Shown piece by piece: positions 40,441 to 41,571 of a stretch of 64,000 bases of DNA. A model generated the notes under the pieces. That model did not search any database and was not told where the DNA came from. It worked only from the letters and a program-made list of their open reading frames with translations. The position numbers were made by a program, and so were the translations under genes. The first letter of the stretch is position 1; each line of letters opens with the position of its first letter. Origin of the DNA: a virus (lineage: Duplodnaviria; Heunggongvirae; Uroviricota; Caudoviricetes); the IMG/VR virus record IMGVR_UViG_2654587772_000002; one strand, 5' to 3'.

Positions 40441-40520
40441 ACAACAGGTAAGGGCGCTGGTTCGATTAACCAGATGAGCGAGAAGGGGCCATCTTTTTGG
40501 TCAGCGTCCTTACCTGTTAC
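40441..40520 (+). repeat. structured repeat element A1 (10-bp stem ACAGGTAAGG / CCTTACCTGT)
   Basis: shares the 14-nt ACAACAGGTAAGGG start with element A2; contains a T-loop-like GGTTCGATT. Confidence 0.4.
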
Positions 40521-40724
40521 GTCCTTTTTCATTCGGCGTAACAGCAATTGCTTTTAGCAATTTAGGAATAACGTCTTGCTACGGGTATATCCCGTCATGC
40601 TGAAGGCGCTAATCACGCTGGAAGCCAGGGTTATGCATCCCCTGTTACCGAATTGCAGCCAGGGCGCGGTGCGCCGAAAAGCATACGGAGGTGGAAGCCC
40701 TCGCCGGAGACGTACCCGGCAAGT

Positions 40725-40800
40725 GATGGTGTAGCTCAGCGGTTAGAGCGGTTGACTGTTAATCAACGGGTCGATGGTTCAAATCCATCCACCATCGCCA
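40725..40800 (+). tRNA. tRNA-Asn (anticodon GTT)
   Basis: 76-nt cloverleaf folded by hand: 7-bp acceptor GATGGTG/CACCATC, anticodon loop CTGTTAA, T-loop GGTTCAAATCC, encoded CCA. Confidence 0.85.
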
Positions 40801-40802
40801 AT

Positions 40803-40878
40803 GCCGGTTTAGCTCAGTTGGTAGAGCGCCTGCCTTGTAAGCAGGATGTCAGCGGTTCGAGTCCGTTAATCGGCACCA
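40803..40878 (+). tRNA. tRNA-Thr (anticodon TGT)
   Basis: 76 nt; acceptor GCCGGTT/AATCGGC, anticodon stem-loop CCTGC-CTTGTAA-GCAGG, T-loop GGTTCGAGTCC, CCA. Confidence 0.85.
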
Positions 40879-40880
40879 GC

Positions 40881-40965
40881 ACAACAGGTAAGGGTATTTT
40901 GCGACGTCGGAGATCGCCGAGCTTGGCAGAGGGTTCGAATCCCTACGAAGTACCCTTACCGTTGT
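40881..40965 (+). repeat. structured repeat element A2 (tRNA-like fragment with GGTTCGAATCC inside a 10-bp stem)
   Basis: GGTAAGGGTA ... TACCCTTACC stem; could not be folded into a canonical cloverleaf. Confidence 0.4.
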
Positions 40966-41106
40966 GAGGAAGCGCAGCTCTTTGAAGCAACCAGAAGATA
41001 AGCATCTGGCTTCACAACATAAACCGCAGGAACGACCAATAAACGGTAGTCCGTATGGAGAACACCCCGTTGAGGAAGAGGCCTGGCCGGAACCGTAACC
41101 GGCACT

Positions 41107-41207
41107 ACAACGTTGAGAACACTGGCGTAACGGGGTCATATCCCAATCTATGAATAAATGTTGCGTTGCCGCGTGACAACCAGTGTTCTCAACATTGTGG
41201 TGAATGC
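41107..41207 (+). repeat. long inverted-repeat element B1
   Basis: ACAACGTTGAGAACACTGG ... CCAGTGTTCTCAACATTGT arms, followed by GGTGAATGCG. Confidence 0.45.
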
Positions 41208-41352
41208 GTGTTGCTGGCGCGCAAGTCCGCCCGATGGCAACGAGGCGGCGTAGTAAATATCGATGCCTCAGTCATCAAGCGCACTGACCGGCCTTATGGG
41301 CTATGAAAAAAAGAGGCGCAGTCGGAGATCAGCACCGACCACCACAATCACT

Positions 41353-41439
41353 GGAGAGTAGGGAGCATGGTGCTCAAGCGGTCTTGAAAGCCGTCCCGTT
41401 GCGCAAGCGATGATGGTTCGATTCCATTACTCTCCGCCA
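41353..41439 (+). tRNA. tRNA-Ser (anticodon TGA), class II with long variable arm
   Basis: 87 nt; acceptor GGAGAGT/ACTCTCC, anticodon loop CTTGAAA, T-loop GGTTCGATTCC, CCA. Confidence 0.6.
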
Positions 41440-41451
41440 TCGCAACGTTAA

Positions 41452-41571
41452 GAGTATTTGGCTAATTAAGCGAATGCCGGAAGCAGAACCGGATCACCAA
41501 ATGCGTACAGGCGTCATCGCCGCTCAGTCAGCCAAATGCTCTTACCATTGCGGTGAATGCGGCTAAGCGCA
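41452..41571 (+). repeat. long inverted-repeat element B2 (paralogue of B1)
   Basis: GCAACGTTAAGAGTATTTGGCT ... AGCCAAATGCTCTTACCATTGCGGTGAATGCG. Confidence 0.45.

Follow-up and report, generated by a model that had tools for sequence, protein, structure and literature searches.

The tRNA island of a 64,000-nucleotide stretch of DNA from a tailed virus of the class Caudoviricetes (IMG/VR record IMGVR_UViG_2654587772_000002; hereafter, the window) contains four long hairpins, A1, A2, B1, and B2, which belong to a single family, here called H, of 80- to 120-nt hairpins with a basal helix of 19 to 30 bp (median 21) and freely variable interiors. The hairpins are restricted to the island, adjoin the 3′ ends of tRNAs, and compete for the 3′ base of their helix with a second covarying helix, which closes STnc100-like units (S units) located downstream. 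We propose, with a probability of about 0.5, that the H hairpins are RNase III-type processing stems, which would release tRNAs and S RNAs from one transcript. The window represents a P1-type phage-plasmid, which also carries a sok RNA and the C4 antisense RNA along with the a1/b1 targets of the latter, and the island region is 94% to 97% identical to those of phages P1, P7, D6, and SJ46 and of approximately 1000 P1-type plasmids.

The island is organized as a succession of modules in the order small hairpin, A1, a spacer closing with a small GCCGG hairpin, tRNA-Asn, tRNA-Thr, A2, a degenerate S-like spacer, B1, S1, tRNA-Ser, B2, S2, and tciA (Table 1). A2 begins 2 nt past the CCA end of tRNA-Thr, tRNA-Ser lies 5 nt past S1, and B2 overlaps the CCA end of tRNA-Ser by 2 nt; a hairpin follows every tRNA block within -2 to +5 nt, the offset between a hairpin start and the tRNA 3′ end ranges from -6 to +5 nt across P1-type, SSU5-type, and Klebsiella plasmids, and additional hairpins are found at places with no adjoining tRNA. 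Each of the four hairpins contains 21 to 30 paired positions, with fold z-scores of -5.2 to -6.8 and no equally stable structure among 200 shuffles (0/200), and all four were retained in both the minimum free energy and the centroid structures of the 1273-nt leader. Apart from A1, B1, and B2, no + strand hairpin in the 64 kb reaches 22 pairs; all others have at most 19 and are rich in G·U. A preliminary description of the island had noted that A1 and A2 start with an identical 14-mer, ACAACAGGTAAGGG, which is indeed exact at 40441 and 40881 and occurs nowhere else in the window (0 expected by chance), and is really a 16-mer starting at 40439 and 40879. The stems described for A1 and A2 exist, but are much longer than the 10 bp assigned to them (approximately 21 to 23 pairs in A1 and 6 + 15 in A2), and B1 and B2 are long inverted repeats as described, although B2 had been placed too far in the 3′ direction (41452-41571 instead of 41438-41555). 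The motif said to follow both B1 and B2, TTGYGGTGAATGCG, is present exactly at 41195 and 41548.

The hairpins could be distinguished from several common classes of palindromic elements. B1 was detected in 530 of 5426 Escherichia coli genomes at a median of 1 place per genome, with 537 of the 545 places located on plasmids, almost always of the P1 type, and a sequence search found A1 only in P1-type phages; a dispersed repeat of the REP/BIME, ERIC, or MITE kind was rejected, the hairpins being single-copy and island-restricted. Intrinsic terminators were likewise rejected, since a U tract is lacking: no T run follows any of the four hairpins, and the sole terminator-like site in 39950-42900 is at 40229-40258. 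No Rfam family matched the H hairpins. The YrlA model (RF02553), which describes an RNA with a long terminal stem and a tRNA-like domain, gave only a weak match (25.6 bits; gathering score 69), located over tRNA-Asn and tRNA-Thr (40745-40862) and not over A2.

To assess the relationships among the hairpins, we relied on covariance models. The model built from B1 orthologues only (R2) scored B1 at 101 bits and retrieved B2 (28.1 bits, E = 4e-5), these being its only matches in the window; in other genomes, it found, at E ≤ 2e-4, the alternative hairpin of P1, the P7-type A2, and hairpins located after tRNAs (tRNA-Ser) in SSU5-type plasmids. Because a model based on B1 retrieves B2, the P1 hairpin, the P7-type A2, and the SSU5-type hairpins, we consider the hairpins to form one family. 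The model of A1 (R1) scored A1 at 93.7 bits, its sole site in the window, and recovered A1 orthologues strongly and A2-type hairpins weakly. The arrangement initially suggested, with A1/A2 and B1/B2 as two pairs bracketing tRNA cassettes, does not hold: R2 unites the hairpins in one family, hairpins also occur without an adjoining tRNA, and some tRNA gains occurred without a hairpin. Lambdoid tciA loci and rV5, considered below, possess long hairpins as well, but neither R1 nor R2 matched these loci, and their hairpins were rejected as members of the same sequence family, with only design and context being in common.

Comparison of alleles showed that the base of the stem, rather than the interior, is retained. 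In an alignment of the window with P1, P7, D6, and Ro157c2YLVW, the stem base of A2 is invariant, whereas the interior, including the T-loop, is swapped in P7 and Ro157c2, where the stem changes are compensated (GGGTA/TACCC to GGGCA/TGCTC). A third A2 allele is present in L005, L025, and L087, and the hairpin that P1 carries in place of B2 combines a stem of the A type with a loop of the B1 type. The T-arm-like sequence of A2, AGGGTTCGAATCCCT (40929-40944), is thus allele-specific. The T-loop GGTTCGAATCC noticed in A2 (40931-40941) is real, and A2, which had been said not to fold as a tRNA, is not one: ARAGORN called none in 40879-40967, the Rfam tRNA model (RF00005) found none at E values up to 5, just 27 nt separate the putative acceptor strand from the T arm, and the P7 and Ro157c2 alleles lack the T-loop. 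T-arm-like mini-hairpins were observed in several interiors, namely those of A2 (GGGTTCGAATCCC), its allele in L025 (GAGTTCGACTCTC), A1 (GGTTCGATT), and B1 (GGGGTCATATCCC).

Covariation across the P1-type and SSU5-type lineages strongly supports the H hairpins as conserved structured RNA. Comparison with relatives, proposed in the preliminary description, revealed that the elements are kept in P1-type and in SSU5/Cyrano-type phage-plasmids; the latter, from Klebsiella, Shigella, and Salmonella, belong to a different replicon family and possess the same tRNAs along with recognizable homologues of A1, B1, and A2, the inner stems of which differ yet remain complementary. Formal covariation tests covered the A1, B1, and A2 groups, the hairpins after tRNA-Ser being too unequal in length for MAFFT. 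In the A1 group (8 sequences from two lineages), both sides have changed in 8 of the 22 pairs, 96.6% of cells are paired, compared with 27% to 51% when the 3′ partners are slid by 1 to 3 columns, and the covariation score (0.472) exceeds those of all 500 shuffles (mean 0.268). Four of the 20 pairs of the B1 group are compensatory, as are 4 pairs of the A2 group (the L001 row of this alignment was disregarded), and the interiors are unalignable in both groups. A pattern scan of IMG/VR yielded additional B1 variants at the two positions after GAG (AA/UU, AC/GU, GC/GC, and AU/AU); 17 matches have the extended stem, 15 of which lie within 700 nt of a tRNA, whereas approximately half of the pattern matches have neither the extended stem nor a nearby tRNA and are probably chance matches. 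Cyrano and Klebsiella plasmids carry other stems of 20 to 25 bp, starting -2 to +1 nt from tRNA-Ser, and rV5-type lytic phages share tRNA-Ser and the B2 interior at approximately 84% identity, with the interior closed by an unrelated stem that still pairs. Among the oppositions within the helices of 27 members, 53 are G·U and 14 are A·C (approximately 20 and 6, respectively, when counted by alignment column), an excess which argues for + strand RNA rather than for a DNA cruciform or a minus-strand RNA; the counts come from few lineages, are non-independent, and are supportive rather than decisive.

The S units begin with GGTGAATGCG and have a closing helix of their own, which covaries and is in competition with the H helix for the 3′ base of the latter. 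The S units have in common with STnc100 a closing helix, the first hairpin, and a 3′ motif consisting of a small hairpin followed by CAYCRCAAY. S2 matched the STnc100 model (RF02076) with 37.8 bits, below the gathering score of 47 and thus short of full membership, over 41549-41669 (model positions 31-147 of 206), and its alignment contains the closing helix UGGUG/CACCA, with the 3′ hairpin CGGGAGGCACCCGG immediately before the 3′ strand; S1, located after B1, gave no match. A full match (78.8 bits) was obtained at a lambdoid prophage locus (L042), beside a tRNA and a tciA homologue. STnc100 has been described as a prophage small RNA (sRNA) related to PasD (bioRxiv 10.64898/2026.05.13.724894). 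In L007-type islands, a full S unit (GTTGTGATGAATGCG...CATCACAAC) follows A2 at the place of the degenerate spacer of the window. The closing helix of S, RTTGYGRTG/CAYCRCAAY, covaries at 3 positions across loci, and its 5′ strand is the identical stretch of 8 to 9 nt that forms the 3′ base of H. The upstream partner in H and the downstream partner in S change jointly at position 5: in B1/S1, both are A, opposite U, and in B2/S2, both are G, opposite C. Computed pairing probabilities in the intact RNA favor H (0.72 for B1 and 0.94 for B2) over closure of S (0.28 for S1 and 0.06 for S2), and removal of the H 5′ arm brings the closure of S1 and S2 to approximately 1.0; this predicted refolding from H to S is a consequence of the energy model and does not count as independent evidence.

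Table 1. Positions of the features of the island and its surroundings in the window.
Feature	Position	Strand	Basis and remarks
Pban promoter and divalent C1 operator (Op72/Oban)	40039..40066	+	Palindrome 40040-40065; homologous to P1 P1ban/P2ban/Obanab, L001 (P1) 1474-1519
dicF-like region (approximate span)	40163..40264	+	P1 misc_feature mapped via alignment; intrinsic terminator at its end
Hairpin A1 (H family)	40438..40523	+	Helix ~40443-40459 with 40502-40518, ~21-23 pairs; variable interior
Small hairpin GCCGG-N7/8-CCGG, three copies	40703..40719, 41086-41102, 41476-41492	+	Direct-repeat family D1
tRNA-Asn(GUU)	40725..40800	+	ARAGORN; Rfam tRNA 74.5 bits
tRNA-Thr(UGU)	40803..40878	+	ARAGORN; Rfam tRNA 72.9 bits
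Hairpin A2 (H family)	40880..40966	+	6 + 15 pairs around a single bulged A; fold -41.6 kcal/mol, z -5.4
Degenerate S-like spacer (GTTGTGAGGAAGCGCAG ... GCCGGAACCGTAACCGG-CACTACAAC)	40958..41111	+	Putative, from sequence
Hairpin B1 (H family)	41103..41202	+	22-bp helix; fold -47.3 kcal/mol, z -6.8
S1 unit	41194..41348	+	Begins ATTGTGGTGAATGCG, finishes GTCGG..CCGAC-CACCACAAT; 9-bp closing helix overlapping B1 3′ arm
tRNA-Ser(UGA), atypical, Sec-like D arm	41353..41439	+	ARAGORN; not reported by Rfam tRNA model; tRNA-Sec 43.4 bits, gathering score 47
Hairpin B2 (H family)	41438..41555	+	At least 24 pairs; fold -50 kcal/mol, z -5.2; 5′ arm starts on CA of tRNA-Ser CCA
S2 unit, STnc100-like 5′ leader of tciA (ATTGCGGTGAATGCG ... 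CCGGGAGGCACCCGG-CACCGCAAC)	41547..41671	+	Rfam STnc100
tciA (TerB-family protein), first coding sequence past the island	41703..42128	+	P1 annotation, open reading frame; 395 relatives in viral contigs
tRNA, anticodon CAU (P1 label tRNA-Ile2), same operon, upstream of ban	42403..42478	+	ARAGORN, Rfam, P1 annotation

Mapping on the annotated P1 genome placed the four hairpins in the leader of the C1-repressed ban (helicase) operon, between Pban/Op72 and tciA-ban. The features occur in the order end of dmt, P1ban/P2ban with the divalent C1 operator, the dicF-like region, tRNA-Asn and tRNA-Thr, a segment variable among relatives, tciA, tciB, and tciC, the CAU tRNA, and ban. Pban would most simply be the start of the transcript carrying the island, and, because a promoter scan found no internal sigma-70-type promoter in 39950-42900, the simplest reading is that the island is part of a single repressor-controlled transcript. 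ARAGORN called 4 tRNAs in the window (Asn, Thr, Ser(UGA), and the CAU tRNA). The tRNA-Ser(UGA) gene has a long D stem and a tiny D loop, and in the D6 record its amino acid could not be assigned by tRNAscan-SE; the gene is also present in P7, where it is unannotated, in D6, in rV5-type phages, and in SSU5-type plasmids.

In the proposed mechanism, H hairpins alternate with tRNAs and S units along one C1-repressed polycistronic transcript from Pban, and host RNase III would cut each H helix twice, splitting the leader into pre-tRNA and S pieces. The short single-stranded 3′ trailers on tRNA-Thr and tRNA-Ser would be trimmed by exonucleases and the 5′ ends of the tRNAs processed by RNase P, whereas the freed 3′ base of H (RTTGYGRTG) would pair with the downstream CAYCRCAAY and close the S unit. 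The repeated H and S modules would further provide homology for recombination, by which tRNAs and modules could be shuffled among phages. We infer RNase III cutting, the order of these events, and any benefit to the phage. In E. coli, the valley of the RNase III dimer corresponds to approximately 22 bp of double-stranded RNA, intramolecular stems receive double cuts, and sites have been mapped near tRNAs (PMC6212723). The helices of all 26 P1-type and SSU5-type members, at 19 to 30 bp (median 21), have the size of an RNase III substrate (PMC6212723). Of the three options raised in the preliminary description, namely processing signals, recombination scars of cassette capture, and small structured RNAs, processing signals are the most plausible function. 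Conserved RNA structure is strongly supported by the covariation in two lineages, and recombination does occur at the repeats, although the Tyr and Arg-Tyr gains have their breakpoints at tRNA edges.

Several observations weigh against this mechanism. Between Pban and the tRNAs, tciABC, and ban, and hence between the promoter and the island, lies a strong intrinsic terminator at 40229-40258, where the terminator scan found a GC stem of 8 bp and, directly after it, T7. Neither the island nor ban can thus be expressed unless transcription reads through this site or is antiterminated. Maturation of tRNAs in E. coli normally has no need for RNase III outside the rRNA operons. The covariation comes from few lineages, with an effective sequence number of approximately 2.5, and the three-way match of H and S partners could partly be inherited through module duplication or gene conversion. 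Finally, natural recombinants (SJ46-type, L017) carry hybrid hairpins with 3 mismatches in 14 pairs, and the stem after tRNA-Ser in rV5 is just approximately 8 to 12 bp long; a perfect 20-bp helix is therefore not indispensable.

That tolerance of the weaker rV5 stem and of the SJ46 hybrid stems, together with the position of stable helices right at tRNA 3′ ends and module borders, would also be expected if the hairpins were insulators or stabilizers, which block 3′-to-5′ exonucleases, protect the ends of fragments generated by RNase E or RNase P, or prevent misfolding of tRNAs and S units. We regard this explanation as unlikely. Some 8 to 12 GC-rich pairs would suffice for such a role, whereas every P1-type and SSU5-type member has at least 19 (median 21). 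A hairpin that abuts or overlaps the CCA end must, moreover, be removed before the tRNA can function, and, because a second covarying helix uses the 3′ base of H, the hairpin would have to be opened at some stage; the competing closing helix of S is sensible only if H is later opened or cut.

The island variants differ by entire modules, with breakpoints falling at or inside the repeats, which fits an alternative in which the hairpins are DNA-level recombination modules or scars, attC-like or plain homology boxes that lack a function as RNA and are kept because they bring about or record the exchange of cassettes. The swap that distinguishes the window from P1 covers 41208-41534, comprising S1, tRNA-Ser, and the 5′ arm and loop of B2, and is bounded on the left by ...GGTGAATGC and on the right by the shared 3′ arm; SJ46-type islands (L017) have a deletion through a 25-nt loop common to two hairpins, resulting in a hybrid stem; L007-type islands duplicate S and A2; and Escherichia albertii plasmids have gained an extra H and S. 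Integron attC sites are likewise imperfect palindromes, of 57 to 141 bp, at cassette borders, with an AAC...GTT stem base and one bulged base, and the stem bases of H, CAAC...GTTG, faintly resemble attC R''/R'. Integron attC sites were nevertheless rejected: the 7-mer cores GCACAAC, CTACAAC, and TCGCAAC have a purine at position 3 and do not fit RYYYAAC/GTTRRRY, the breakpoints between the window and P1 lie approximately 10 nt 3′ of the stem (after GGTGAATGC) and inside the 3′ arm rather than at G|TT, and no integron integrase was evident. A purely DNA-level role is distinctly improbable, considering that compensatory changes preserve the helices across lineages while the sequence drifts, that G·U exceeds A·C as in + strand RNA and not as in a DNA cruciform, and that B1 is single-copy per replicon. 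Furthermore, the junctions of a Tyr insertion and of a replacement of tRNA-Asn by Arg(UCU)-Tyr are at tRNA edges and involve no hairpin. Because some tRNA gains break at tRNA edges in this way, the H/S repeats are frequent joints and not obligatory cassette borders.

In the P1-type islands L005, L087, and L089, the tRNA-Arg(UCU)-tRNA-Tyr block replacing tRNA-Asn has the same spacing as in rV5 (L085 2221-2386), whereas in L004 and L090, Tyr is inserted between Asn and Thr. The sequences point to temperate phage-plasmids and lytic Vequintavirus phages having traded tRNA blocks directly with one another. The small GCCGG hairpins stand directly before a tRNA or an H hairpin in the first two copies and within the B2 interior in the third. 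Their spacing of 383 and 390 nt hints at growth of the island through tandem duplication of an approximately 385-nt unit, with the B2 interior being a nested remnant.

Two further explanations appear weaker than the processing of a common transcript. The hairpins could be sRNAs or tRNA mimics, either decayed-tRNA decoys for tRNA-targeting enzymes or sRNA precursors with active interiors, as might be suggested by the T-arm-like mini-hairpins of several interiors, the approximately 84% conservation of the B2 interior between P1-type phages and rV5 despite unrelated stems, and the tRNA-equivalent positions held by hairpins after small GCCGG hairpins. We consider this very unlikely: entire interiors have been replaced from one allele or lineage to another, with the basal helix being retained, no match to tRNA, YrlA, or another Rfam model was obtained, and in some alleles, the T-arm-like hairpin is at positions that are not tRNA-like. 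Coding on the minus strand with merely incidental palindromes has in its favor the P1 annotation, in which plp (125 aa) and upl (63 aa) run antisense to tRNA-Thr, A2, B1, and the variable segment (L001 2295-2864). This explanation is hardly credible, as plp overlaps tRNA-Thr and, in the window, is shortened to 96 aa and starts elsewhere (40849-41139, minus), the window lacks the upl segment, no Pfam or PHROG family matched Plp and only PHROGs of unknown function matched Upl, and most plasmid and RefSeq records have no coding sequence under the island region; both plp and upl look like spurious calls over structured RNA.

Processing stems for host nucleases are well known in phage transcripts, whereas the H family is not, and its association with the 3′ ends of tRNAs and the way in which it overlaps STnc100-like units are likewise undescribed; a literature search found no paper describing H hairpins. 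The RNase III stems of rRNA operons are similar in that helices of approximately 20 bp or more flank stable RNAs in one polycistronic transcript, with tRNAs between stems, and in that the helix matters and not the interior. They differ from H, the interiors of which are just 24 to 82 nt long and variable, and the stems of which abut tRNA 3′ ends instead of enclosing an rRNA and are putatively cleaved. In the early region of T7 (R0.3-R1.3) and in the N-leader and sib of lambda, phage hairpins allow host RNase III to cut a long early transcript into units; the T7 sites, which separate mRNAs, contain a characteristic internal loop, whereas H hairpins are near-perfect helices separating tRNAs and structured noncoding units. 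The tRNA cluster of T4 includes 2 co-transcribed, structured non-tRNA RNAs, species 1 and 2, of which species 1 is cleavable by RNase III in vitro. These are discrete stable RNAs with no sequence relationship to H or S, which are known here from sequence alone. DicF of the Qin prophage arises from a polycistronic transcript through maturation by both RNase III and RNase E, providing a precedent for obtaining a promoter-less sRNA through processing. P1 has a dicF-like region in the same leader, but upstream of the island and with its own terminator, and the DicF model of Rfam has no match in the dicF-like region. Compared with STnc100 (RF02076)/PasD, the S units share the closing helix UGGUG...CACCA, the position of the first hairpin, and the 3′ motif CGGGAGGCACCCGGCACC, and STnc100 proper adjoins tRNAs and tciA homologues in lambdoid prophages; the copy in the window differs in having no terminator of its own and only partial coverage of the model, and the H hairpins lie outside the STnc100 model.

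More tentatively, H and S together might constitute a self-contained RNA cassette grammar of temperate phages, a possibility to which we give a rather low probability. The 9-mer RTTGYGRTG would pair backward, to form an RNase III-sized helix, and, after cleavage, forward, to form an STnc100/PasD-type RNA, such that one repressor-controlled transcript could yield tRNAs and several sRNAs, the latter with no promoter or terminator of their own, and the a/a' motifs would serve as recombination joints for the trade of tRNA and sRNA modules among P1-type, SSU5-type, lambdoid, and rV5-type phages. Although P1 is a classic model phage, the annotation of the approximately 1.4 kb of its ban-operon leader is limited to three tRNAs, a "dicF-like region," and two doubtful open reading frames. 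The present analysis describes this leader as a chain of conserved RNA modules, that is, long hairpins, STnc100-like units, and tRNAs, which is present in approximately one-tenth of complete E. coli genomes via P1-type plasmids and also in SSU5-type phage-plasmids of Klebsiella, Salmonella, and Shigella. It offers a concrete, testable model for the maturation of phage tRNAs and prophage sRNAs, an explanation for the placement of mosaic breakpoints in phage tRNA islands, and seed alignments for an RNA family missing from Rfam, and it flags plp and upl as probable misannotations.

Additional variation was observed among the tRNAs of related islands. The P1 segment that takes the place of tRNA-Ser (L001 ~2760-2830) aligns loosely with tRNA-Ser, with CTGAAAT matching the anticodon loop and TGGTGCGGCCCGATCACCCGCCG the T arm and acceptor, and may be a decayed tRNA-Ser, in which case tRNA-Ser would have been lost in P1 rather than gained in the window. 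At the place of tRNA-Thr, L025 (~2788-2925; IMGVR_UViG_2724679238_000007) has the normal 5′ (GCCGGTTTAGCTCAGTGGGAGAGCAC) and 3′ (GGTCAGCGGTTCGAATCCGTTAACCGGCACCA) parts of tRNA-Thr with approximately 75 nt of unrelated sequence at the anticodon arm and no ARAGORN call; this gene may represent a tRNA that has been disrupted or has acquired an insertion, or else a tRNA-like RNA. Between tRNA-Ser and tRNA-Thr, rV5 (L085 2690-2788) has an unannotated tRNA-like gene of 97 to 99 nt, which scored 35.5 bits with the Rfam tRNA model and was called by ARAGORN as 'tRNA-???' with a 4-base anticodon. The lambdoid tciA loci (L029-L084) encode tciA homologues that are 84% to 88% identical, with other tRNA sets (Ile-Arg-Arg, Thr-Gly, and Met-Lys-Thr-Gly-Val) and STnc100-like units, and display unrelated, near-perfect hairpins of 21 to 31 bp in the same arrangement (e.g., L039 2716-2809, L061 1191-1279, and L057 3059-3146). 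The combination of a tRNA, a long hairpin, an STnc100-like unit, and a TerB-like gene seems to be a shared mobile module.

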